Positions 24,497-37,473 of a DNA stretch of 64,000 bases are shown here, piece after piece. The translations under genes were made by a program, and so were the position numbers. The stretch is from a bacterium (GTDB lineage: Bacteria > Zhuqueibacterota > Zhuqueibacteria > Residuimicrobiales > Krinioviventaceae), in the NCBI GenBank assembly GCA_963693055.1, contig OY843751.1, positions 2,368,001 to 2,432,000 on the forward strand. The letters run 5' to 3'. The notes beneath the pieces were generated by a model. The model was not told the origin of the DNA, did not search any database, and saw nothing but the letters and a program-made list of their open reading frames with translations. Within the stretch, counting starts at the first letter, position 1, and each line of letters opens with the position of its first letter.

Positions 24497-24726
24497 TGTA
24501 ACCTCTTTATTTTATTAACTTATAGAGTGTAAGGATGTTTAAAACGTTTAATGATATCCATATATTCCTGTCATTTTTGTTAATAAGATAATTGTTGTTG
24601 GTAATGACATACAATGTTTTACAATTATTGTCCATAATAGAGTGTTAATCACAGAACTTGCATGTGGTTAATACGTTATGGTTAAGAACGGAACGGAACA
24701 CGTGTAAACAACTGAGAGGAAAGCTC

Positions 24727-27165
24727 ATGAATAGACGGTTAATATACTTTATATTATTGTTATCCATATCAATCGTTTTTGCTCAACCAGGTCAAAGGTC
24801 TGGATCTGCGCGGGGTACAATAATCAAAGGGCTGGTTCAGGATAACCAGTTAAAGACACCCATTGAATATGCCAATATTATTCTTTATAAACAAAAAGAT
24901 ACCGACCAGGTTACCGGTACGGTTTCAAATAAAGAAGGTCTGTTCACATTGACTGGTGTACAACCTGGGCTTTACAAAATAAAAATCAAGTTTATGGGAT
25001 ATTATGAAAATACAGTGGATAGTGTCCGTGTTAGTGCAAACCAACCTGCAATTGATGTAGGCAAGGTGGGTTTGAATCAAACAGTGTTGATGCTTGAAGG
25101 TGTTCAGGTTGAAGCGGAAAAGGCACCGGTTGAATACAAGATTGATAGAAAAGTGATTAATGTTGATCATCAAATAACTGCTAGTGCCGGCTCTGCAGTA
25201 GATGTGCTTGAAAATGTTCCATCTATTACGGTTGATATTGAGGGTAATGTACAATTAAGAGGTAGCGGAAGTTTTACCGTATTGATTGATAATCGGCCTA
25301 CTGTTATGGACGCAAGCGATCTTTTGCAACAGATACCTGCCAGTACAATTGAGAATATCGAAATTATTACCAATCCTTCTGCCAAATATGAACCCGATGG
25401 TATGACCGGTATAGTTAATATTATTACCAAAAAGAATTCTTTACGTGGATTTAATGGTATTGTTAATTTGAATTCAGGTGTTGATGACAAGTACGGCGGT
25501 GATTTTTTGTTTAATTATCGTATGAATAATGTTAATACCTATTTTGGTATGAACTATAACCACAGATACTTTCCTGGAGATCGTATTGGAGAAAACTGGA
25601 CCGCTCAAAATGATACCATACATTACTTAAATACCAATGGTAGTAATTCAATGGATTTTACTTCTTATGGTGTTCAGGCAGGTGTTGATATTGCTCTGTC
25701 AAAACAGGATAATTTCAAAGTTGGCTTGAATTATCGTGGAAGAGGGATGGAGCATGCGAATAAATCAAATTATGAAGAATGGATTAGCACACTGACAGAC
25801 CGTGATTATTATTCAAGCACGGGTAGTTCTGAAAGAAGTGGCCCTTCTTATAATATGAATTTGGATTATCTTCACCGATTTGAAACCAAAGGACACGAGT
25901 TATCAGCTTTGTTGAATTTATCTTCAAGAAGTGGTGATGAAGAATCGCTTAATGAAAATTATAATGCTAACGGAGCAATTACAAATGGACAACGATCTGT
26001 TGAAAAAGGTCCATCCATGCGTGCTGATTTGAAATTAGATTATACCCGTCCACTAGGTGAAAACAACAAGCTTGAAGCAGGTTACCAGGGTCGATTTAGC
26101 CGCTCTAAAGATGAAAATGAACTCTATGAATATGATTTAGGTATTAGTGATTATGTGTTTCTACCACAATATAGTTATCTAACAAATTATAATCGCGATA
26201 TTCATGCAGTGTATTCCATGTATGCGGGTGAAACCGGTCCTATTGGTTACCAGGCAGGACTTCGTGGTGAATACACGAATCGAAATATTACACTGGATGC
26301 TGAAAATCAGGAATTTGCAATTGACAGATGGGACCTTTTCCCAACAGCTCATTTGTCTTTCAAGGGCGAATCCGGGCATCAAATGATGGCCAGTTATACC
26401 CGCCGCATTGACAGACCACGCGGCTATTATTTTGAACCATTCCTAACCTGGATGGATGCGTATAATGTGCGTACGGGTAATCCTGCAATCAAGCCTGAAT
26501 ATATTGATTCTTATGAAATGGGTTACCAGAAACAAGTTGGACAAAATCTATTTTCTGTAGAAACTTATTACCGCATTACTCATGACCGTGTTGAACGTGT
26601 GCAATCTGTATATGATGAAAATGTTCTGTTGCATTCAGTTGCGAATGTTGGTCAGGATTATGCATTGGGTGCCGAGTTTATGATCAACTGGGACCTGTTG
26701 TCAAACTGGAATATGAACCTGATGGGCAATATGTATGATTATCGTATAGAAGGTGAATTGTTGGGGGCAGATTTTTCACGTAGCAGCTTTAACTGGAATA
26801 CGCGTATGAATAATACATTCAAGTTAACCCAAAATTCCAGAGTACAATTTAATCTAAGATATAACAGTCCATCCGTATCTGCTCAAGGCAGACGTGAAGG
26901 CTTTTTCTCTTCAAGTATTGCCTATAGACATGATTTTCTTGACAAGCGTATTTCCATGACATTACAGGCTCGTGATGTTTTTGGAACAGAGGTACATGAA
27001 AGAATTTCAGAAGGTGATGGATTTTATTCTTATTCAAAATTTGACCGTAATACGCCTATAATCACCATGACAATGAGCTATAAAATAAACAATTTCAAAG
27101 CAAACCGTGGAAAAGGCAATGATGGTGGTGGTGGTGATGATTTTGGTGGTGAAGGTGAATATTAA
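24727..27165 (+). CDS. TonB-dependent receptor with N-terminal carboxypeptidase-regulatory-like domain
   Basis: GAGAGG RBS; signal peptide; plug IENIEIITNPSAKYEPDG..GIVNIITKK; barrel GNPAIKPE. Confidence 0.92.
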   Translation: MNRRLIYFILLLSISIVFAQPGQRSGSARGTIIKGLVQDNQLKTPIEYANIILYKQKDTDQVTGTVSNKEGLFTLTGVQPGLYKIKIKFMGYYENTVDSVRVSANQPAIDVGKVGLNQTVLMLEGVQVEAEKAPVEYKIDRKVINVDHQITASAGSAVDVLENVPSITVDIEGNVQLRGSGSFTVLIDNRPTVMDASDLLQQIPASTIENIEIITNPSAKYEPDGMTGIVNIITKKNSLRGFNGIVNLNSGVDDKYGGDFLFNYRMNNVNTYFGMNYNHRYFPGDRIGENWTAQNDTIHYLNTNGSNSMDFTSYGVQAGVDIALSKQDNFKVGLNYRGRGMEHANKSNYEEWISTLTDRDYYSSTGSSERSGPSYNMNLDYLHRFETKGHELSALLNLSSRSGDEESLNENYNANGAITNGQRSVEKGPSMRADLKLDYTRPLGENNKLEAGYQGRFSRSKDENELYEYDLGISDYVFLPQYSYLTNYNRDIHAVYSMYAGETGPIGYQAGLRGEYTNRNITLDAENQEFAIDRWDLFPTAHLSFKGESGHQMMASYTRRIDRPRGYYFEPFLTWMDAYNVRTGNPAIKPEYIDSYEMGYQKQVGQNLFSVETYYRITHDRVERVQSVYDENVLLHSVANVGQDYALGAEFMINWDLLSNWNMNLMGNMYDYRIEGELLGADFSRSSFNWNTRMNNTFKLTQNSRVQFNLRYNSPSVSAQGRREGFFSSSIAYRHDFLDKRISMTLQARDVFGTEVHERISEGDGFYSYSKFDRNTPIITMTMSYKINNFKANRGKGNDGGGGDDFGGEGEY

Positions 27166-27323: not shown

Positions 27324-28643
27324 ATGGATTTACCCAATTGTATTTCCAGTGAAATTTTAGATTCTATTGGTGAAGGTATATATACAATTGATAAAAAGTT
27401 CAAAATCAGCTTTATAAATAAAGCTGCAGAGGAAATACTTGGCGTTAGACGTGAAAAAGTAATAGGTAAATTTTGTAAACATGTCTTCAGTTCCGAAGAG
27501 TGTTTGGAAAAATGTCCCATTAGCAAGGTGTTAGATTCCGGTGAGAATGTTTATGATCATATTACAAAGTTTTATCATACCAATGGCATATCGAAAAATG
27601 TAAGGGTAAATGCTTCATTACTCCATAATTCAGATAATGAAATAGTGGGCGGGGTTGTATCATTTCGTGATCTTTCAAATGAAGAGAGTTCTGTATTAAA
27701 ATCCAAAACCATGCAGGATTTTTATGGCATTGTAGGACAATCAAAACCTATGATGGAATTATATGACCTTGTTACAGAAATTGGCAGCACATGCGCTACT
27801 GTATTGATTCAGGGTGAATCCGGAACGGGTAAAGAAATGTTTGCTAATGCAATACAGGCCTCCAGTCAGCGTAACAAAATGCCTTTTATTAAAGTCAACT
27901 GTTCGGTTTTTCCGCCGCAATTGCTTGCAAGTGAATTATTTGGACATGTCAAGGGTGCGTTTACTGATGCAATTCAAAACCGTAAAGGCCGTTTCGAGAT
28001 TGCAGACAAGGGCACATTGTTTTTGGATGAAGTTGCTGAAATGCCGTTGTCAATGCAATTACAGCTCTTACGTGTTCTGCATGAAGGAACCTTTGAAAGA
28101 GTGGGTGAATCTTTGACACGCTCTGTGGATGTAAGAGTGATTGCTGCTACAAACAAGGATTTGGATACCGCTATTAATGACGGATCATTTAGAGAAGATT
28201 TGTTTTACCGATTAAATGTGATTCCTATGCATATTCCTGCGCTTCGTGAAAGAAGAGCTGATATACCGCATCTAGTTAATTTTTTTGTGAAAAAGTTTTC
28301 ATCAACTTATCATAAAGAAATACAGGAAGTAGATGATGAAGCTATGGATTATCTAACCGCTTATAATTGGCCAGGTAATGTTCGTGAATTGGAAAATGCA
28401 ATAGAATATTCATTTATAAGAACTCATGATGATGATGTGATTTCCGCCAAAAAATTACCCGCAAATATCCGCCAGAAAAATGGCAAGTTTTTTACAACAG
28501 GGGATAGCAAGTTTTCTGAACGAGATGAAATTTTAGAAACCTTGAAAAGACATCATTGGAATAAAAGCAAAGCTGCAGATGAACTACGTATGGGCCGTAC
28601 CACTTTATGGCGTAAAATGAAAGCTATGGGCATTGAAACATAG
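27324..28643 (+). CDS. PAS-domain sigma-54-dependent transcriptional activator (bEBP)
   Basis: PAS; GESGTGKE, SELFGHVKGAFTDA, LFLDEV, FREDLFYRLNV, WPGNVRELEN; Fis-type HTH. Confidence 0.95.
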   Translation: MDLPNCISSEILDSIGEGIYTIDKKFKISFINKAAEEILGVRREKVIGKFCKHVFSSEECLEKCPISKVLDSGENVYDHITKFYHTNGISKNVRVNASLLHNSDNEIVGGVVSFRDLSNEESSVLKSKTMQDFYGIVGQSKPMMELYDLVTEIGSTCATVLIQGESGTGKEMFANAIQASSQRNKMPFIKVNCSVFPPQLLASELFGHVKGAFTDAIQNRKGRFEIADKGTLFLDEVAEMPLSMQLQLLRVLHEGTFERVGESLTRSVDVRVIAATNKDLDTAINDGSFREDLFYRLNVIPMHIPALRERRADIPHLVNFFVKKFSSTYHKEIQEVDDEAMDYLTAYNWPGNVRELENAIEYSFIRTHDDDVISAKKLPANIRQKNGKFFTTGDSKFSERDEILETLKRHHWNKSKAADELRMGRTTLWRKMKAMGIET

Positions 28644-28747
28644 TATGAAACAGTGAAACAATTTGTTCTGCATCGTAACTAACCTATTAATAATATTTTA
28701 AGTTTGATTTTTATATATTTATTTTTATATTGAAACGTTCTGTTTCA
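28634..28747. promoter_or_regulatory. enhancer array (TGAAAC half-sites and TGAAAC-N5-GTTTCA palindrome)
   Basis: TGAAAC at 28634, 28646, 28654 (with GTTCTG) and perfect TGAAAC-GTTCT-GTTTCA at 28731-28747. Confidence 0.6.
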
Positions 28748-28789
28748 TGAGTCTTCTTTGTAACCTCTTGTTTTTTATGGTCTTGTTTT

Positions 28790-28805
28790 TGGCAAGGTCT
28801 TTGCC
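28790..28805 (+). promoter_or_regulatory. sigma-54 promoter of TPR gene
   Basis: TGGCAA-GGTCT-TTGCC; IHF-like TAACCTCTTGTTT at 28761. Confidence 0.75.
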
Positions 28806-28833
28806 TGATTTACCCCAAAAAAATGGAATTGTC

Positions 28834-29286
28834 ATGTACGAAATGCTTGGTAATCAGTATTTTATGTCCCGTCAGTATAGCCGTGCTACAATGGCTTTAG
28901 AAAGGGCATTACAGTCTGATCCTGATAATATGGGGATTCAGCGCAAGCTGATTATTTGTTATTGTCAAATTGGTAAAGTTGATGATGCATTGCACATGTT
29001 TATATCGCTTATAAAATCAGATATTGACTTTATTATGTCTGCTGATCCTATATTAGATGATTGTCCTTGTCCTGATTTGATTTATAATATGGAAGCACAA
29101 ATATCAGATGAGCGCCAATCTTTGGATTTTAATTTGATAATTGGTATTTTGTGGTTGTTTTGTGATCTTGAACGTTCTTTTGAGTATTTTCATAAAGCAC
29201 AAGTTATGGATCCTAATAATACCAATATAAAATCTATAATGCTTTTTCTTTCAAATCGTTTAGAAAAAGAGAAAACCCGCCATTAA
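28834..29286 (+). CDS. TPR-repeat protein with DDCPCP motif
   Basis: LGNQYF...ALERALQSDPDN and FHKAQVMDPNN TPR helices; start moved from 28747 because the sigma-54 promoter lies inside the longer ORF. Confidence 0.75.
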   Translation: MYEMLGNQYFMSRQYSRATMALERALQSDPDNMGIQRKLIICYCQIGKVDDALHMFISLIKSDIDFIMSADPILDDCPCPDLIYNMEAQISDERQSLDFNLIIGILWLFCDLERSFEYFHKAQVMDPNNTNIKSIMLFLSNRLEKEKTRH

Positions 29287-29394
29287 ATATTTTTTCCTTT
29301 TAATATATCCCTAAATATCTACTTGCTATAGTATATTGCAAATACATTTGTTTTTTTTATTGGCCTTGTCATTATTTATATGTACTTTATTTAC

Positions 29395-29757
29395 ATGAAA
29401 AAAATTATGACATACACATTAATTTCTATTTATTTTAGTTTTTTCCCAATTTATCCCTATATTCATTTTCATTTGAATTGTGATGTTGATAAAGTATGTC
29501 ATCATGTTGATTTCAGTGAATGTGAACATTTTCATCATTCTGAACATCAGGAACATAAGCATTTCAAGGGTGACTGGCAGCATACCATAACCAAAGATGA
29601 TCCCGGTAAAATCCAGTCCATAAACCTTGTACATGAATACAGTTTTTACTATTCTGTAATTACCGGTGCAAGGTTACCCGAGTTCACCAATCATCTCAAA
29701 GATTCCATTCTTTACAGTCCCGATGTTTCACGGGCACCCCCTGCATTACTCGTATAA
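29395..29757 (+). CDS. His/Cys-rich leader protein with C-terminal RAPP motif (DUF2946/CruR-like)
   Basis: MKK plus hydrophobic N-terminus; HFHLNC...CHH...CEHFHHSEHQEHKH; ends SRAPPALLV. Confidence 0.7.
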   Translation: MKKIMTYTLISIYFSFFPIYPYIHFHLNCDVDKVCHHVDFSECEHFHHSEHQEHKHFKGDWQHTITKDDPGKIQSINLVHEYSFYYSVITGARLPEFTNHLKDSILYSPDVSRAPPALLV

Positions 29758-29824
29758 TTTACACCAGACAATTTCAAAATTTATTACATGAATTTCAATC
29801 TCTTTCATTAATGGAGAATTGTAT

Positions 29825-31045
29825 ATGAACCGCATTGCGAGTATTCTTCTCGTAGCAAGTGCATTGGTTCTGGCTGGGGATAATACTATTCAACTCTCGT
29901 ATACCGAGTTGGATACACTATTGTCAAACAGTCCTGTTTACCATTCACTTGACTATGAGTTTAGTGCCAAACGATATGATGTTAAACATCATTTAAACTG
30001 GCAAAATCCTGAATTTGAATTTGAACGGGACGCATTGAGCGAAAATGGTGATAAAGAAAACGAATCTGTTTTTCTGCTTGGTAAAGATTTTATGCTTCCT
30101 TGGGCTGGCTATTATCATCGTTCTGCAAAAAATGCTGAACTTGATGCAATTCAATTTTCGCAAAAAGATGGCTATTTGTTACAGTTGAACACCTTCAAGA
30201 GTTATTATATAACTCTTGCACTGTTGCAGCAAAAATCCAATCGATATATTGAATTGGACAGCTTGATGAACAAAGCATTGAATATTGCTCAGGAGCGATT
30301 TGAGCAAGGTACATTGTCCGGAATTGAAAACCGTCTTGTGCAGCTGAGCAAGTTTAATGTGCAACGAGATCGTTTTGTTTTACAACAGGAATATAAAGAG
30401 CTGCTTGCTCAATTTGCTATAAGTTTGGGATTTGGTGCTGATGATTCTCTGGATTTCTGTACGGATATTACTTTTTTACCTTTTAAATTAAAACCACTTG
30501 CAGCCTATGCGCAAGCTCTTAACAATCATCCTGTATTGGCATCTATAGCAGTTTCTCAAGATGCAAAAAAACAGCAGGTCCGTTTTGAAAAAATGGCACC
30601 CGTTTCTTCTGTGCATCTTTCAGGTGGCTATAAACAATTAAATGACACAATGGATGGGTATGTGGCCGGTATTTCAATTCCTCTTCCCATATTGAATCAG
30701 AATAAAACGGGTATTCAGAAAACAAAAGCCGAGTTGAATCAATTGCAAATTGATAATCAAATGATAACCCAAAAGTTAAATTTGCGCCTTGAGCAGCTTT
30801 ACTCAGCTCAGGAGGTTCAGCAAAAACATATGCAAACCTTTTCTGAATCATTTCATTCTGCATCACAAATTATTGATGATATTGTGTATACATTTTATCA
30901 AGGCTCTGCTGATTTTGGAGATATTCTGGATACATATCAGGTTTATACTGAGAGCATGAGCACCTATTATGATCAACTCTTGTTGTATTATAATTACCTG
31001 TTGGAACTGGAATACCTGACTCAAGAGAAAATTATTGAATTTTAG
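29825..31045 (+). CDS. TolC/CzcC family outer-membrane efflux protein
   Basis: GGAGA RBS; WQNPEFEF, AQERFEQG, GISIPLPILNQN; first structural gene of RND operon. Confidence 0.85.
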   Translation: MNRIASILLVASALVLAGDNTIQLSYTELDTLLSNSPVYHSLDYEFSAKRYDVKHHLNWQNPEFEFERDALSENGDKENESVFLLGKDFMLPWAGYYHRSAKNAELDAIQFSQKDGYLLQLNTFKSYYITLALLQQKSNRYIELDSLMNKALNIAQERFEQGTLSGIENRLVQLSKFNVQRDRFVLQQEYKELLAQFAISLGFGADDSLDFCTDITFLPFKLKPLAAYAQALNNHPVLASIAVSQDAKKQQVRFEKMAPVSSVHLSGGYKQLNDTMDGYVAGISIPLPILNQNKTGIQKTKAELNQLQIDNQMITQKLNLRLEQLYSAQEVQQKHMQTFSESFHSASQIIDDIVYTFYQGSADFGDILDTYQVYTESMSTYYDQLLLYYNYLLELEYLTQEKIIEF

Positions 31046-31054
31046 AGGGATATT

Positions 31055-32614
31055 ATGAAATATATAAAATTAACGAGTTTATTATTGGTTGCCTTGATCG
31101 CATGTAGTAAACCGGGTGTAGATGAACATGCAGGGCATGACCATGGTGAAGAAGCTGTTTCCTTAACAACCTGGACTGATGATTACGAGTTTTTTGCCGA
31201 GTTTTCACCTAATGAAGATCATTCTCAGAATGCGTTGATACATGTAACGCAATTAAAGGATTTCAAACCCCTTGTTGATGATCATATTGCGATCATTTTT
31301 GAATCTGAGAGTGATCAGGTACTTTTTGATCAAGAGCTTGAATTAGCCCGACCCGGTATATATAGCAGTGCTATTGAATTACCTGAAACGTCAGAACATT
31401 ATCACGTTGCTCTGAGAATAGGGAATGAGATGTTTGATTTAGGGCATGTAGCGTTTGATGAACATGAGCTTGAGGGACTCGCTGAATCAGAAAATGGTGA
31501 GCATGATCATGAACATGATGCGGAAGCGAATGAAAATAATCATAATACTGATATCAAGGGAGAAATTGTACCTTTTTTAAAAGAACAACAGTGGGTTGCT
31601 GATTTTAATGTTTATAAAAGTAAAGTTGGGGATGTTCGTTCCGTTGTATATGCTATTGGTCAAGTCATTCCGCATCAACAGGGCTTGTCAGAAATTGTTT
31701 CACCCGTTGAAGGTTATTTAAATGTCAACCACAATCAAAATATGGTTGTAGTGGGTGCGCGGGTTAAAAATGGCCAGATACTGGCTACACTATGTCCGCC
31801 AATTGGGCGTTCAAATACATGGACAGAACGATACCTTTCATTTCAACGAGCTGAAAAAAATTACCAACGCGCTCAGGAATTGAAAAAACGACAGGCTATA
31901 TCAAATACAGAATTTGAACAAATTGAACAAGACTATCTTGTTGAAAAAGCCGGATTTGAAACCCTTTTAAACGCATACAATATTACTCCGGATATGAACA
32001 ACAAGGAATGTATGCATTTTTATGTCAAAGCTCCTATTGATGGAATTGTTTCGGAAATGAATATTAAACCCGGACAGAATATAGGCGCAGGTGATCAAAT
32101 GATGACCCTGGTTGATCCTGATGTGGTTTGGATCCATGCGGATTTGTATGAAAAAGAATATTATAGATTGGGCAAGCCGGATGGAGCTACGCTTGAACTA
32201 CCTGGTAGGGATGAAAAACTCCATCTTGATAAAAATGAAATCAAAATGATTAATAAAGGTGAAATTGTTGAACAGGAAACACGCACTATACCCGTGCTGT
32301 TTCAACTCCAAAATAAAGATAGGGTGCTAAAAATCGGTCAAACATTACAGATGAACATATATTCTGCCAGTGATGATAAAGCTGTTATTGTACCTGTATC
32401 CGCTATTCTTGATGAAGATATTCAAAAATTTGTTTTTGTACAACATTCTGGAGAATCTTTTGAAAAGAGGCTGGTGAAAACGGGCCCAGTATATAAAGAC
32501 AATATTGCTATTCTTGAAGGATTGAATCCCAATGAACGTATTGTGACAAAAGGTACCTATTTGTTGAAACTGGCAACAGTTACAACAGCTGTAGGGCACG
32601 CTCACAGTCATTAA
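31055..32614 (+). CDS. CzcB/CusB-type RND membrane-fusion lipoprotein, His-rich
   Basis: Lipobox LIAC; HAGHDH, HDHEHD; VKAPIDG, ETRT, VPVSAI, GLNPNERIVTKG; C-terminal GHAHSH. Confidence 0.9.
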   Translation: MKYIKLTSLLLVALIACSKPGVDEHAGHDHGEEAVSLTTWTDDYEFFAEFSPNEDHSQNALIHVTQLKDFKPLVDDHIAIIFESESDQVLFDQELELARPGIYSSAIELPETSEHYHVALRIGNEMFDLGHVAFDEHELEGLAESENGEHDHEHDAEANENNHNTDIKGEIVPFLKEQQWVADFNVYKSKVGDVRSVVYAIGQVIPHQQGLSEIVSPVEGYLNVNHNQNMVVVGARVKNGQILATLCPPIGRSNTWTERYLSFQRAEKNYQRAQELKKRQAISNTEFEQIEQDYLVEKAGFETLLNAYNITPDMNNKECMHFYVKAPIDGIVSEMNIKPGQNIGAGDQMMTLVDPDVVWIHADLYEKEYYRLGKPDGATLELPGRDEKLHLDKNEIKMINKGEIVEQETRTIPVLFQLQNKDRVLKIGQTLQMNIYSASDDKAVIVPVSAILDEDIQKFVFVQHSGESFEKRLVKTGPVYKDNIAILEGLNPNERIVTKGTYLLKLATVTTAVGHAHSH

Positions 32615-32636
32615 TTATTCATTGAGGAGAATAAAT

Positions 32637-35600
32637 ATGTTAGATTTTATAATGCAAAATAGTCTGCGAAACCGGTTGATTGTGGTTCTGGCCGGTATTG
32701 CAGTTCTGGTGATGGGAATTCTCATTTCCGGCAAGCTGCCGGTTGATGTTTTTCCGGATTTAACCGCACCAACTGTTACAGTTATGACCGAAGCACATGG
32801 TATGGCCCCCGAAGAAGTAGAGATGCTGGTTACGTTTCCTATTGAAACTGCGGTGAATGGAGCAACAGGGGTAAGGCGGGTACGGTCCACTTCAATTCAG
32901 GGATTCTCTACGGTCTGGGTTGAATTCGAATGGGGCATGGATATTTATCGTGCTCGTCAAATCGTTAATGAAAAAATGCAGAATCTTCAAGGTGCATTAC
33001 CTGATGGTGTAGATTCACCTGTGCTGGCACCTATAACTTCGCTTATGGGCGAGATTATGACCGTTGGTTTGACCAGCGACTCGTTATCTCTGATGGAATT
33101 GCGCTCATTATCTGATTTTCAAATACGACGCAGATTGCTTGCTGTGCCCGGAGTTGCACAAGTCAAGGTCTATGGTGGCGAAGTCAAACAATATCAGGTC
33201 CTGGTAAATCCTAATATGTTACGCAAGTATGATCTTACTTTGCATCAGGTGCATGAAGCTGCACAAAATGCAAACTTGAATGCTGCGGGAGGATTTTATG
33301 TACAATCCGGTCAGGAATACCTTATCCGGGGTATGGGCCGTATCCACGATATTAAAGAGCTGGAACGTGCGGTGATCAGCACGCATAATAATATTCCGGT
33401 ATTGATGCGTGATATCGGTAGGATTGTTATTGGTCCTGCAACAAAGATTGGTGAAGCATCTATCAACGGTGACCATGGTGTGCTGATTGTAATCAGCAAG
33501 CAGCCGGACGCAAACACATTGAAACTGAATGAGCGATTGAATACGGTTATTGCCAACATTGCTGATACCCTGCCAAAAGGAACGAAATTGCATCCCAACC
33601 TCTTCACTCAGGCGGGATTCATTACCCGAGCAGTGGAAAATGTTATAGATGCCCTACGTGATGGCGCATTACTGGTTATCATTATTTTGGCTTTGTTTTT
33701 GGCAAATGTAAGAACAACAATAATTTCCACGCTTGCAATTCCTTTGTCACTCATGTTTTCGGTTCTGATATTGTATTTGGCAAATTTATCTATTAATACC
33801 ATGACCTTGGGAGGTATGGCCATAGCTATTGGTGTACTGGTGGATGATGCTATTATATATGTTGAAAATGTATTCCGGCGTTTGCGGCAAAATCGGGAAA
33901 AACCAGTCAATGAACAGCAAGACGAAGATCAAGTGATTTTAAAAGCATCATCAGAAGTGCGTGCACCTATTTCAATAGCTACATTTATTGTTATAATTGT
34001 ATTTTTACCTCTGTTCTTTTTGAGTGGAATTGAGGGACGTATGCTCATTCCACTGGGTATTGCGTACATTGTTTCTATTTTTGCATCGCTGATTGTTGCT
34101 ATTACTGTTACTCCGGCACTGAGTTCTTATCTGTTAAAGCGGAACAAGAGTTCAAAAAATCGAGAGAGCTGGATCGTTTTGTTTTTGCAGTCTCTGTACA
34201 AACCGGTTTTAAACTGGTGCCTGACTCACAAAAGATGGGTTGTGGGTCTTGCCAGTATATTTTTGTTGATATCATTGTCAATTCTTCCCTTTATTGGCCG
34301 GTCATTTTTACCGGAATTTAATGAAGGCACGCTTAATATCAGTCTGGCAACTTTACCGGGTACATCTCTGGACGAATCAGACAGGATTGGTCGGATTGCA
34401 GAGAATTTATTATTGGAACATCCATCTGTTGTTACGGTGAGTAGACGTACCGGACGAACGGAAATGGATGAGCACTCGTTAGGCTCGCATGCGCATGAAC
34501 TTGAAGTTGAGATTGATTTTAGCAATATAACACAAGACCAGTTGTTAAAAGACGTGAGAGAAAAATTGAGCTTGTTACCGGGTTGCGTATTTGTCATCGG
34601 CCAACCCATTGGCCACCGTATTGATCACATGTTATCCGGTACGCGCGCAAATATTGCAATCAAGATTTTTGGCTCAGATCTTTACAAGCTTCGACAGATC
34701 GGTCTCAAAGTTCAACAAGAGATTGCGGACATACCGGGAGTAACAGATCTGTCAATGGATCAGCAAATTGACATCCCGCAGTTACGTATTCGGGCCAATC
34801 GTGAGCGCATGGCATTGTATGGTGTAACCATGGGTGATGTGGATGAAATGATAGATACCGCTTTTCTGGGAACTGCGGTGTCGCAGGTATATGAAGGTCA
34901 AAATCAGTATGATCTTGTGGTTCGCTATGACGAGTCCTTTCGCAATAACATTGATGCAATTCGTAACAGCCTGATCGATACACCCATTGGTGCCAAAATT
35001 CCACTGGATATGATAATGGATATTCAAGTGGATCGTGGCCCCAATTACATCAGTCGCGAAAACGCCCAGCGCAAGATCGTCGTTCAAGCAAATGTGGCAG
35101 AAAGAGATATAGGCAGTGTTATCAGTGATATCCAATCAAGGATATCCAATACGGTAGATCTGCCGGTCGCCTATTATGTAGAGTATGGCGGACAGTTTGA
35201 GAGTGAACAGCAAGCCACACGTGTAATTTCTTTACTGAGCTTGTTATCACTGTTGCTTATCTTTTTGGCATTGTATCTGGAATTTAAAAATCTGAGAATA
35301 CCATTTCTCATCATGTCTACATTACCTTTTGCACTCATTGGTGGAATTATTGCCATTCGGGTTACGGGTGGGGTAATGACCATTGCATCTATTGTGGGAT
35401 TTATCACCCTGTTTGGAATTGCAATTCGTAACGGTATTATCATGGTTTCTCATTACATCCAGTTACGGGATGAGGGAGTAGCGCTATCCAAAGCCGTCAT
35501 TCAGGGTTCTCTGGACCGTCTGAGTCCGGTTCTCATGACTGCGCTTACTACAGGATTAGCATTGACTCCGCTTGCCTTTGCCGGTAACAAACCCGGTAAT

Positions 35601-35711
35601 GAGATACAGGCACCGTTGTCTATTGTAATATTGGGTGGATTGATCACGTCAACGTTGTTGACACTGTTGGTACTTCCCATTGTTTACAGTTGGATTAATA
35701 AAGAGAAATAG
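32637..35711 (+). CDS. czcA: CzcA/CusA family heavy-metal efflux RND permease
   Basis: PVDVFPDL, EEVEMLVTFPIE, MTLGGMAIAIGVLVDDAII, FLPEFNEG, GFITLFGIAIRNGI, RLSPVLMTA. Confidence 0.9.
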   Translation: MLDFIMQNSLRNRLIVVLAGIAVLVMGILISGKLPVDVFPDLTAPTVTVMTEAHGMAPEEVEMLVTFPIETAVNGATGVRRVRSTSIQGFSTVWVEFEWGMDIYRARQIVNEKMQNLQGALPDGVDSPVLAPITSLMGEIMTVGLTSDSLSLMELRSLSDFQIRRRLLAVPGVAQVKVYGGEVKQYQVLVNPNMLRKYDLTLHQVHEAAQNANLNAAGGFYVQSGQEYLIRGMGRIHDIKELERAVISTHNNIPVLMRDIGRIVIGPATKIGEASINGDHGVLIVISKQPDANTLKLNERLNTVIANIADTLPKGTKLHPNLFTQAGFITRAVENVIDALRDGALLVIIILALFLANVRTTIISTLAIPLSLMFSVLILYLANLSINTMTLGGMAIAIGVLVDDAIIYVENVFRRLRQNREKPVNEQQDEDQVILKASSEVRAPISIATFIVIIVFLPLFFLSGIEGRMLIPLGIAYIVSIFASLIVAITVTPALSSYLLKRNKSSKNRESWIVLFLQSLYKPVLNWCLTHKRWVVGLASIFLLISLSILPFIGRSFLPEFNEGTLNISLATLPGTSLDESDRIGRIAENLLLEHPSVVTVSRRTGRTEMDEHSLGSHAHELEVEIDFSNITQDQLLKDVREKLSLLPGCVFVIGQPIGHRIDHMLSGTRANIAIKIFGSDLYKLRQIGLKVQQEIADIPGVTDLSMDQQIDIPQLRIRANRERMALYGVTMGDVDEMIDTAFLGTAVSQVYEGQNQYDLVVRYDESFRNNIDAIRNSLIDTPIGAKIPLDMIMDIQVDRGPNYISRENAQRKIVVQANVAERDIGSVISDIQSRISNTVDLPVAYYVEYGGQFESEQQATRVISLLSLLSLLLIFLALYLEFKNLRIPFLIMSTLPFALIGGIIAIRVTGGVMTIASIVGFITLFGIAIRNGIIMVSHYIQLRDEGVALSKAVIQGSLDRLSPVLMTALTTGLALTPLAFAGNKPGNEIQAPLSIVILGGLITSTLLTLLVLPIVYSWINKEK

Positions 35712-35749: not shown

Positions 35750-37321
35750 CTATCGCAGCAATATCATCTTTTTATTTTTTGAAATGCTACCATAATTCAT
35801 ATTATAAAAATAAACACCAGATGCTACCTTGTTTCCCAAATAATCTGTACTGTCCCATGTAATTGTATACTGTCCTGCTTGATAATGCCGATTTACCAGT
35901 GTCTTAACCATTCTACCTTTTATATCAAATACATTGATCATGATTTGCTCTGCTTTTGTAATGCTAAAATTGATTTGTGTTGTTGGATTAAACGGATTGG
36001 AATAATTCTGCATCAGTTCAAATTGTTCCGGTGTTTGATCGTGTTTTCCAATGCCAGTTTCTGGTGTGGTGATCTCAAAAACGTGGATGATGCTCTTGTC
36101 TTCATCAGCACGTCTCTCATTTATGTACAGCAAACCCCTGGACCTGTCGTAACAGCAAGCACCCAGTGTTGTCATTTTATAATTACCGTAATCGTATCCC
36201 GGACTAAACATGTATTCATTGATGTTCATCATGGCATAAGGTTGTGGCTCCCAAGGCGATTTGATCCCATTTGCCACATCTGCCAAATCTGCAGGATCAA
36301 AAAACAGAATGACGGCATTGATACTGTCTGCCCACCAGCCGCGTTCATCATGCGGCCATTCGGGAACATCGGGATAGGGAGGGTCCTGCGGCCAGACGGT
36401 TCCGTCCGAAAACCCATACCAGGAATCTCCCATAGCTTTGGTACCCACCAGAACGACTGCTGATCTATCTCCACCTGTTAACCAGGCCCCCCCTGACCAT
36501 TCATCCGGTTCTTTATAGTCGTTCATTTTCTTGTCTTGTGATGCAACCAGGTACGGATTACCGGGCTGATGTTCACCAAACATAAGCAGGGGAGTGATGT
36601 TCCACAACGTATCTCCCGCGGTTGGCAATGTGGAATGAACAACAGGTGTATACGCATACAAGGCGGGTCCCAGACCACCCCACTCACCGTCCCTGAATCG
36701 TCCGCTGGCAAGGTATTGCCCCGGCGTGTTTGCATCCGCCCATTCATGAGGAATGGCAAATAAATAATCGTTTGTTGTATAGTGACTGTAATTACCATAA
36801 TACCAGGGTCCCACAGGAGTTGGGCTGCCGAGATCCAGATTGCAATATCCATGCGATGGCACAAGCACATCCTGAAAATGTTCACCGCGACAGTAATAGA
36901 GTCCCTCAGGCAGATCACCCATTGCAGGCAAGTACTCTATACCCATCCGTGGGATTTCCTGTTCACCAAATACACCCCCGGTTATATCTCCAAAGGGTTG
37001 CAATGTTTCTGCAACGTTGAGATCGGCAGGATCTTTGGCTCCGGAAATCACCGGATTCGGAATCGATATCTCTGAAACCAGTTGATGATGATCGTGTCCT
37101 AAAGCAAAGATAGATCCCGGATAATCATCCGTATTGGAGGGATCTCCATCCGGATAAAAAGTCATGGCATATCCACTGTAAATCCATTCAGAAACATCAG
37201 AAACATCCGGTAATCTAAACGCCCCAAGATAATTCAGGTCCTGCGGTTGTATTAATTCTCCCGCAGACAATAGTGTTGTTGTGCAAAACAACAGGCTGAT
37301 AATTGCTTTTAAACTTTTCAT
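35750..37321 (-). CDS. secreted hypothetical protein with FlgD-Ig/T9SS-like C-terminal domain
   Basis: Signal peptide MKSLKAIISLLFCTTTLLSA; tail QNYSNPFNPTTQINF...FDIKGRMVKTL...ASGVYFY...KKMILLR. Confidence 0.8.
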   Translation of the reverse strand: MKSLKAIISLLFCTTTLLSAGELIQPQDLNYLGAFRLPDVSDVSEWIYSGYAMTFYPDGDPSNTDDYPGSIFALGHDHHQLVSEISIPNPVISGAKDPADLNVAETLQPFGDITGGVFGEQEIPRMGIEYLPAMGDLPEGLYYCRGEHFQDVLVPSHGYCNLDLGSPTPVGPWYYGNYSHYTTNDYLFAIPHEWADANTPGQYLASGRFRDGEWGGLGPALYAYTPVVHSTLPTAGDTLWNITPLLMFGEHQPGNPYLVASQDKKMNDYKEPDEWSGGAWLTGGDRSAVVLVGTKAMGDSWYGFSDGTVWPQDPPYPDVPEWPHDERGWWADSINAVILFFDPADLADVANGIKSPWEPQPYAMMNINEYMFSPGYDYGNYKMTTLGACCYDRSRGLLYINERRADEDKSIIHVFEITTPETGIGKHDQTPEQFELMQNYSNPFNPTTQINFSITKAEQIMINVFDIKGRMVKTLVNRHYQAGQYTITWDSTDYLGNKVASGVYFYNMNYGSISKNKKMILLR

Positions 37322-37473
37322 GTTAATCCCCTGATTAAACATTGTGATTATGAAATATATTACAATATCTGTGAATAATGCCAGTCTTTTTTACTTGATA
37401 TTCATGAAATCAATCACTATAGTTCAATATCCTGTTATTGAACAATTCAATCATTTTTACCGGGAGGGTAAAC

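Follow-up and report, generated by a model that had tools for sequence, protein, structure and literature searches.

A histidine-rich small protein ending in RAPP upstream of a czcCBA-type efflux operon, a putative metal-sensing arrest peptide

Nascent peptides with a RAPP or RGPP core block peptidyl transfer at the point where codons three and four of the core occupy the P and A sites of the ribosome, and this arrest is described as tolerating varied upstream sequence and as resisting EF-P (PMC12992588; PMC10951233). According to PMC12992588, such motifs are avoided in proteomes, and no residue could substitute for the arginine in the cores of ApcA, ApdA and ApdP. The subject of this work is a small open reading frame (ORF) with such a core, found in a 64,000-nucleotide stretch of bacterial DNA (hereafter the window; positions 2,368,001 to 2,432,000 of contig OY843751.1, assembly GCA_963693055.1, phylum Zhuqueibacterota). 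It encodes a His-rich leader protein that ends shortly after a RAPP motif and is followed by the three genes of a czcCBA-type efflux system. The conserved features of this leader suggest that it is probably a cis-acting, metal-sensing ribosome-arrest peptide of the CutF/CruR type controlling czcCBA.

The closest described systems are CutF and CruR. CutF from Rhodobacter capsulatus undergoes copper-induced stalling during its export, and its downstream gene is switched on (preprint 10.1101/2025.02.05.636593). A survey of CutF-like proteins describes 5,334 of them, 76% from Pseudomonadota and 19% from Bacteroidota, and names the outer-membrane efflux protein (OEP, CusC/CzcC) of a resistance-nodulation-division (RND) system as the commonest downstream neighbor of their genes; CzcI is described there as CutF-like but devoid of the C-terminal proline motif (PMC9973294). 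CruR (Bp2923, a DUF2946 protein from Bordetella pertussis) is reported to carry a CXXC motif and, three residues before its end, a RAPP motif at a fixed spacing of 45 residues, and to exert a Rho-based control in which a bubble of C over G marks the rut region of cruR (PMC9426467). A first, sequence-only reading of the window had already drawn the analogy with CruR and CutF, and its account of both systems is accurate as far as these sources describe them (PMC9426467; PMC9973294; preprint 10.1101/2025.02.05.636593).

A broader class of upstream ORFs (uORFs) was defined by Fujiwara et al. in 2025 as encoding fewer than 300 amino acids, with a localisation signal and a RAPP or RGPP motif near the C terminus (PMC12992588). 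The leader fits this class: its motif occupies residues 113-116 of 120, and a helix is predicted at its N terminus. The source tables of that work list RAPP uORFs before TolC family proteins (530), RND adaptors (620) and CusA/CzcA pumps (50), and two members of the family described below are rows 1838 and 3921 of its uORF list, each a 'hypothetical protein' before a TolC family protein. Because the CutF-like survey and these tables cover leaders before RND efflux genes, the kind of leader is already known, and the novelty attributed to it by the sequence-only reading was overstated.

The leader is arranged in a simple order: the residues MKK, a hydrophobic stretch, the motif YPYIHFH, a block rich in His, Cys and acidic residues, about 50 plain residues, and the ending SRAPPALLV (Table 1). 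The letters of the His/Cys block, from residue 24 to residue 56, are HFHLNCDVDKVCHHVDFSECEHFHHSEHQEHKH. The cysteines of the protein are C29, C35 and C43, and neither CXXC nor CXXXC occurs in its sequence. An upstream in-frame ATG at 29380 is an alternative start that would give a protein of 125 amino acids. The size of the ORF, the His/Cys block, its ending and its distance from the TolC-type gene had been read correctly, to the letter and to the position, in the earlier account. When modeled by AlphaFold2 with the family alignment, the leader shows helix 2-19 as its sole confident element (pLDDT 82-93), the remainder scoring 51-68 with a pTM of 0.26, and no regular structure is predicted outside this N-terminal helix.

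The leader is a real gene under purifying selection. Compared with its counterpart in a congener, its codons differ in 18 synonymous and 11 non-synonymous changes, a ratio of non-synonymous to synonymous differences per site (pN/pS) of 0.13, next to 0.18 for czcC between the same two genomes. It is this codon-substitution pattern that indicates that the leader is translated and selected, and it also rules out a spurious ORF or a gene on the opposite strand (29419-29634, -) as the explanation of the reading frame. The terminal RAPP likewise exceeds chance, being rare in the genome and conserved in relatives. Of the 25,947 ORFs in the 6.5-Mb genome that encode 50 amino acids or more, just 12 have [RK][AGS]PP within their last 10 residues, and five of those 12 are His-bearing leaders of metal-transport operons.

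The three genes downstream constitute a heavy-metal efflux RND system of the czcCBA/cusCBA type, with pump, adaptor and outer-membrane factor in one operon; its czcA-like gene is the top of 11 RND matches in the genome. In what follows, genomes of the phylum are referred to by number, that of the window being G000 and that of the congener G001. A reciprocal search with the czcC protein (E<=1e-25, 167 phylum genomes) found orthologues at 10 loci in nine genomes, and a leader of the same family lies just upstream in all 10. Six of these leaders end in RAPP, three in KSPP and one in RSPP; the loci in G141 and G022, newly revealed by this search, have leaders that end in RSPPISA and KSPPLSLI, respectively. 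In G000, G001, G004, G017, G018 (contig C103) and G047, the genes behind the leader encode OEP, HlyD_D23 and ACR_tran proteins; in G011 and on a second contig of G018 (C541), where the contigs end early, gene order is the same as far as visible. The sequence-only reading had staked its proposal on the conservation of RAPP in orthologous leaders, and the motif in its [RK][AGS]PP form is indeed present at 10 of 10 czcC loci and in 45 of the 53 representatives of the family. Outside the phylum genomes, one metagenome locus with usable context (of two matched) also shows the leader followed by a czcC-like gene. Locus searches with the family alignment returned three loci on genome contigs, all already known, and a search of metagenome contigs with another family alignment found none.

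The family had to be assembled by profile. Scans of the leader protein against the Pfam and NCBIfam libraries gave no match, no family matching it at E<=0.1 or at E<=1, and a word-index protein search returned only the leader itself. When relatives were searched in six frames, copies turned up in G001, G004, G011 and G036, and a five-sequence profile added copies from the phylum genomes in G017, G018 (two), G047 and, weakly, G085. A match in G097 was dropped as a family member; it is a 725-aa ORF, RecG-like by eye. The family is taken here as the 53 cluster representatives that this profile matched at E<=1e-3 among 1.84 billion representative proteins.

Mean column identity across the alignment of these 53 sequences is just 18%, and conservation is limited to three sites: YPxxHxH after the helix, H-x-x-GDW, and the C-terminal [RK][AGS]PP. 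H26 is invariant, while Y20, P21, H24, H56, P115 and P116 are each at least 90% conserved, and the pattern [YFL][PA]xxHxH is present in 52 of the 53. At the C terminus, [RK][AGS]PP is found in 45 sequences and R[AG]PP in 27; the individual endings are RAPP (22), KSPP (11), RGPP (5), RSPP (5), KAPP (2) and one each of RPPP, HAPP, KPPP and RDPP. Within the last 18 residues, 49 of the 53 have xxPP, with two to four residues after PP in 45 of these 49 and exactly three in 33. The distance from H56 to the first proline of PP is nearly constant, 57-64 residues in 44 of 45 sequences with a median of 61, and 61 or 62 in 29 of them, and the residues in between are not conserved in sequence despite this near-constant length. 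The distance between the two His motifs, from H26 to H56, is variable (30-69). Histidine makes up 9.3% of residues family-wide and seven of the 53 members have no Cys at all, values that fit the earlier suggestion that this could be a His-based version of the copper leaders.

Table 1. Features of the leader locus in window coordinates.
Feature	Position	Strand	Remarks
Sigma-54-dependent PAS-AAA-HTH activator	27324-28643	+	Neighbor, not a conserved part of the locus
Small TPR gene	28747-29286	+	
Conserved block, candidate promoter or 5' untranslated region	29352-29394	+	One base differs from G001; farther upstream unalignable
Leader ORF, 120 aa + stop	29395-29757	+	TAA at 29755-29757
N-terminal hydrophobic helix, residues 2-19, after MKK n-region	29398-29451	+	Predicted membrane anchor or signal segment
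YPYIHFH motif, residues 20-26	29452-29472	+	
His/Cys/acid-rich block, residues 24-63	29464-29583	+	Last part HFKGDWQH (residues 56-63, 29560-29583)
Spacer residues 64-112	29584-29730	+	Sequence not conserved, length conserved
C-rich, G-poor last 120 nt of leader, candidate Rho-loading region	29638-29757	+	Putative function
RAPP arrest-type motif, R113 A114 P115 P116	29731-29742	+	Codons CGG GCA CCC CCT, then ALLV + stop
AU-rich intergenic spacer, 67 nt	29758-29824	+	Shine-Dalgarno sequence GGAGA at 29813-29817
czcC-like outer-membrane efflux protein (OEP/TolC-type)	29825-31045	+	PF02321 OEP, E 2.1e-11
czcB-like periplasmic adaptor	31055-32614	+	His-rich N-terminal stretches, C-terminal HAHSH; PF16576 HlyD_D23; TIGR01730 above cut-off
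czcA-like heavy-metal RND pump	32622-35711	+	TIGR00914 CusA/CzcA family, 839.5 bits vs cut-off 701.45

Stalling, the metal response and cis-regulation by the leader are what sequence and analogy suggest, and the mechanism proposed for them is the following. The N-terminal helix would take the nascent chain to the Sec translocon, and the ribosome would pause once Pro115 has reached the P site and Pro116 the A site. In this state, 52-59 residues would separate the peptidyl-transferase centre from H-x-x-GDW-x-H and 60-91 from the remainder of the His cluster, about 52-91 overall. The force profile of LepB, as given in a preprint (10.1101/2021.02.06.430026), has transmembrane helices reaching SecYEG about 45 residues from the same centre and periplasmic folding at about 70, and from these values and the residue distances it is inferred that the cluster may lie in or just beyond the translocon. 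A divalent metal on the histidines, guessed to be Zn, Co, Ni or Cd from the His/Asp/Glu ligands, would alter the pulling force on the chain and prolong the arrest, a polarity (that of CutF) chosen because an efflux pump needs it. Arrested and queued ribosomes would then keep czcCBA expressed, by a preferred route in which the C-rich, G-poor end of the leader and an unstructured spacer are shielded from Rho, as in CruR, or by a less likely one in which weak pairing around the Shine-Dalgarno (SD) sequence is loosened. The parts of this scheme do not carry the same confidence. That the leader is an arrest-peptide regulator is likely, and that its histidines act as the metal sensor is probable; the Rho-type output is put forward tentatively, and SD unmasking is the more doubtful of the two outputs.

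The stretch between the leader and czcC is constrained. This 67-nt spacer is identical to that of G001 at 62 of 67 positions, and it is thus more conserved than synonymous sites of the flanking genes, where pS is 0.31-0.43. Neither an intrinsic terminator nor a sigma-70 promoter was found in this spacer, and an Rfam scan of it assigned no family, giving only two sub-threshold chance matches to snoRNAs on the opposite strand. The conserved block upstream of the leader contains no consensus sigma-70 site. As for a Rho-based output, G000 encodes Rho (697 bits vs a cut-off of 509), and at 10 of 10 loci the final 120 nt of the leader contain more C than G. In G000 the excess is 12.5 percentage points, about 2.7 standard deviations above the genome mean, since the ends of 3,455 long ORFs of the same genome average -4.4 (standard deviation 6.3) and reach 13 or more in 0.3% of cases.

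Several observations weigh against the proposed mechanism. In the family itself, PP is missing from four of the 53 members, which have RGLP, RAAP, RASP or, in one case, a truncated end, and lysine replaces arginine in 14 (KSPP 11, KAPP 2, KPPP 1). Because the arginine is reported to be irreplaceable in ApcA, ApdA and ApdP (PMC12992588), this Lys clade may stall differently or not at all. The copy in G036 (contig C282) is broken: the leader has a TAA in its N terminus, and in the ORF behind it some 100 czcC residues are fused to the C-terminal half of czcA, the adaptor gene being absent. This copy of the locus, on a short contig from a genome that is 79% complete, is either degenerate or misassembled. 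Between G000 and G001, some purifying selection also acts on the spacer residues of the protein, a pattern equally compatible with a stable protein, and the choice between metal prolonging and metal relieving the arrest was made from physiology only. On the RNA, shuffled sequences fold as well as the fold of 29700-29850 (z -1.67) and that of 29755-29840 (z -0.67), and in G001 the helices predicted at minimum free energy are altered in their 5' arms but not in their SD arms. The effect of a stalled ribosome was modeled by forcing RNA up to 13 nt past the A-site codon to be unpaired and comparing SD accessibility with that of free RNA; across the 10 loci the shift is inconsistent (for example 0.28 to 0.27, 0.45 to 0.49, 0.25 to 0.46 and 0.44 to 0.37). 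The C over G bias may follow amino-acid composition, the related loci in which it is seen are not independent, and the intergenic spacers of G004 and G085 have G over C.

Much of this bears on the first alternative, in which the same sensor and arrest have a translational output as in CutF or SecM, the stalled ribosome melting a pairing that hides the czcC ribosome-binding site. This output is possible but doubtful. The spacer is short, like most CutF-like spacers, which are described as being under 100 nt (PMC9973294), and its 3' 37 nt are identical in G001. In the minimum-free-energy fold of 29700-29850, codons 4-6 of czcC (29836-29843) are paired with the final codons of the leader (29747-29754), and the SD with AU-rich upstream segments. 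However, these fold energies are no better than those of shuffles, the 5' arms of the helices are altered in G001 without compensation, masking of the stall footprint makes no consistent difference to the SD, and leader-to-czcC spacers of 59 to about 240 nt put the SD beyond the direct reach of a stalled ribosome. The hairpin at 29796-29821 that the sequence-only reading had placed over the ribosome-binding site is at chance level (-3.8 kcal/mol, z -1.18, with 27 of 200 shuffles as good, and z -0.08 for its 41-nt context); it is the one element to be set aside from a reading that is otherwise supported in silico. Further from the proposed scheme, the leader could assist the pump as a stable metal-binding protein anchored in the membrane on the periplasmic side, serving as a chaperone or a CzcI-like regulator, with no regulatory use for RAPP. 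A His-rich protein encoded first in the operon recalls CzcI from Cupriavidus as described in PMC9973294, purifying selection runs along the entire ORF, and the Lys variants are not expected to arrest model ribosomes. Against this, no fold is predicted past the one helix, short motifs with a fixed PP distance and a fixed tail of two to four residues are needless for a binding protein, RAPP-like motifs are reported to be strongly avoided unless used for arrest (PMC12992588), few ORFs of this genome end in this way, and CzcI itself is described without a proline motif (PMC9973294). This accessory role is accordingly considered improbable.

The two remaining alternatives concern the control of the operon. 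With the polarity of CruR, default arrest would keep the operon on and metal would relieve it, so that the ligand represses, or some other signal such as Sec or membrane stress would be read. CruR itself is reported to work in this way (PMC9426467), and G000 has RAPP-ending His leaders before four operons for TonB-dependent receptors, where repression by metal makes sense. A metal-repressed heavy-metal efflux pump is nonetheless physiologically unlikely, and the czc-type leaders have no detectable homology to the receptor-type leaders beyond the RAPP tail and, unlike them, no second hydrophobic segment before RAPP, all of which makes this polarity quite improbable here. Least probable, to the point of being hardly credible, is that control is mainly transcriptional, by the sigma-54-dependent PAS activator, with the small ORF as a passenger. 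The sequence-only reading was right that no two-component, MerR or ArsR regulator is adjacent, but it passed over this activator just upstream, which together with the TPR gene lies on the same strand in both G000 and G001; in the window the two genes stand between that of a TonB-like outer-membrane barrel (24658-27165) and the leader. The pair is found beside the leader in these two genomes only: it is absent in G011, G017, G018 (both loci) and G047, and in G004 the contig ends. By eye, moreover, no GG-N10-GC spacing is present in 29290-29394, and it is the leader, not the activator, that accompanies czcCBA in 10 of 10 loci. Upstream genes are unrelated from locus to locus, with a T9SS-sorted protein in G017, a divergent acyltransferase and, at the second locus, a DUF6064 gene in G018, and a PP2C phosphatase in G047, and no conserved protein regulator was found beside the leader among the loci compared. 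The metal-prolonged arrest proposed above is the preferred explanation of the locus.

A more ambitious version of the arrest-peptide proposal can be formulated, although it is unlikely to hold in full. The spacer of about 61 residues would be a ruler that, just as the ribosome arrives at RAPP, holds the last His motif at the mouth of SecYEG on the periplasmic side, so that the ribosome itself would read periplasmic Zn, Co or Ni through the membrane. In this lineage, RAPP leaders from three or more unrelated families would have taken over most of the role of protein metal regulators, with opposite polarity, within one genome, for export (czcCBA) and for import (the four TonB-receptor operons). 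The KSPP clade would represent a naturally occurring arrest core based on Lys, one that ought to fail according to mutagenesis with model ribosomes.

The receptor-type leaders of G000 form two pairs of paralogous small ORFs on contig C1. Those at 4987370-4987663 (+) (L027:1371-1664) and 2105205-2105516 (+) (L028:1206-1517) encode 97 and 103 amino acids and share an N-terminal hydrophobic segment, the motif LHNH..DFEHH.DCP and another hydrophobic segment; their sequences terminate in LRAPPA and SRAPPILLIY. Each is the first gene of an operon with a TonB-dependent receptor, has no Pfam match, and aligns with the czc-type family in the RAPP tail only. The second pair, at 1482741-1483055 (-) (L029:7742-8056) and 552226-552828 (-) (L030:7227-7829), also ends in RAPP and has the motifs (I/T)HIHVLPDG..HSH and (N/S)HSH(S/T)E, with a hydrophobic segment before RAPP. 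One of these two ORFs precedes PepSY_TM-like, HmuY-like, TonB receptor, DUF1007 and NicO genes, and the other a TonB receptor. Comparison of the czc-type leader with these receptor-type leaders detected no homology, the RAPP tail alone aligning. The weak relative in G085 (E 0.0025) ends in RRGPPVFVNAST and adjoins a downstream TonB-dependent receptor gene; this protein (HVHTDENGKIVVHAHP...RRGPP) groups with the G000 leaders carrying (I/T)HIHVLPDG..HSH.

Other genes of the same genome were noted in passing. A second RND gene of G000 (C1:3019613-3023431, +) reaches the CusA/CzcA cut-off only when the pieces in one 1290-aa frame are summed, and no RAPP-ending ORF of the genome-wide scan list lies near it. 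Convergent to czcA in the window is the gene for a 530-aa protein (35750-37342, -) with a type IX secretion system (T9SS) C-terminal sorting domain (Por_Secre_tail, FlgD_ig), which fits an organism of the Fibrobacterota-Chlorobiota-Bacteroidota (FCB) group.

Beyond the phylum, the ESM Atlas places the leader near Bacteroidota clusters, one of which carries DUF6769 (PF20558) on 14% of its members. The DUF6769 member in G023 (L032:1495-1908, -; a weaker match, L033, lies in G027) resembles the leader in being small, with a hydrophobic N terminus, the motif HAVIPHHHH, a His/Cys/Asp-rich stretch and the ending ...GLRAPPLA; it precedes a His-rich ORF read by eye as an RND adaptor. Judging from this one member, DUF6769 appears to be an analogous, Bacteroidota-type family of His/Cys-rich small proteins terminated by RAPP. 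The DUF6769 model has no match at E<=1 among the 53 family members, an hhalign comparison of the family with the G023 protein aligns the RAPP tail alone (probability 8%), and a word-index search with the DUF6769 member returned only itself. The Pfam name gives no function for DUF6769, and a full-text search on that name yielded a single unrelated paper.

Metal-sensing arrest peptides have so far been shown experimentally only for copper, with cysteine motifs, and in Proteobacteria (CruR and CutF). The family described here would be a compact, His-only version associated one-to-one with a czcCBA pump, in a little-studied phylum rich in uncultured members and with no conserved protein regulator adjacent. 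Its sharp sensor-to-stall distance, about 61 residues where that of CruR is 45, may help to distinguish periplasmic from cytoplasmic sensing, and the natural Lys-for-Arg clade challenges the rule of an irreplaceable arginine. As such ORFs are annotated 'hypothetical protein' or missed, many RND metal pumps have probably been assigned the wrong mode of regulation. The family, its His motifs, the 61-residue ruler and the Lys clade were not found described in the searchable literature, outside of which lies the supplementary list of PMC9973294. In PMC12992588, family members figure only as table rows, without a definition of the family, a sensor motif, an analysis of spacing or an experiment on them, and the word 'efflux' is absent from its main text.

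With ApdA, ApdP and SecM the leader would share a RAPP/RAGP core that blocks peptidyl transfer when prolines fill the P and A sites, a signal for export at its N terminus and release of the arrest by pulling force; those peptides differ in that they monitor Sec or YidC activity, regulate secretion genes and have no metal-ligand motif. CutF and CutF-like proteins resemble the leader in being small and exported, in combining a metal-ligand motif with a proline-based stalling motif at the C terminus, and in being encoded immediately ahead of a metal-detoxification gene (PMC9973294; preprint 10.1101/2025.02.05.636593). CutF, however, is described with CXXXC and an EF-P-sensitive PPP, whereas the leader of the window has RAPP and a putative His sensor; CutF opens a defined stem-loop shielding the SD, and no stem-loop is supported here; and CutF is described as a DUF2946 member, while the DUF2946 model (PF11162) has no match at E<=1 to the leader or anywhere in the G000 genome and matches only two of the 53 family members, weakly (best E 0.032). 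The two His-only clusters described in the CutF-like survey adjoin HupE/UreJ and not, as here, RND pumps (PMC9973294). CruR resembles the leader in its fixed sensor-to-RAPP spacing, its poorly structured peptide, its first place in a metal-transport operon, and an ORF whose 3' end is richer in C than in G and is followed by a long unstructured spacer (PMC9426467). It differs in having its sensor, CXXC, at 45 residues from the motif instead of a His at about 61, in preceding a TonB-dependent importer that copper switches off, and in being a proteobacterial peptide reported to act independently of its signal peptide (PMC9426467). Like both CruR and CutF, the leader has a terminal proline motif and, by prediction, an export signal at its N terminus, and its gene comes first in a metal-homeostasis operon.

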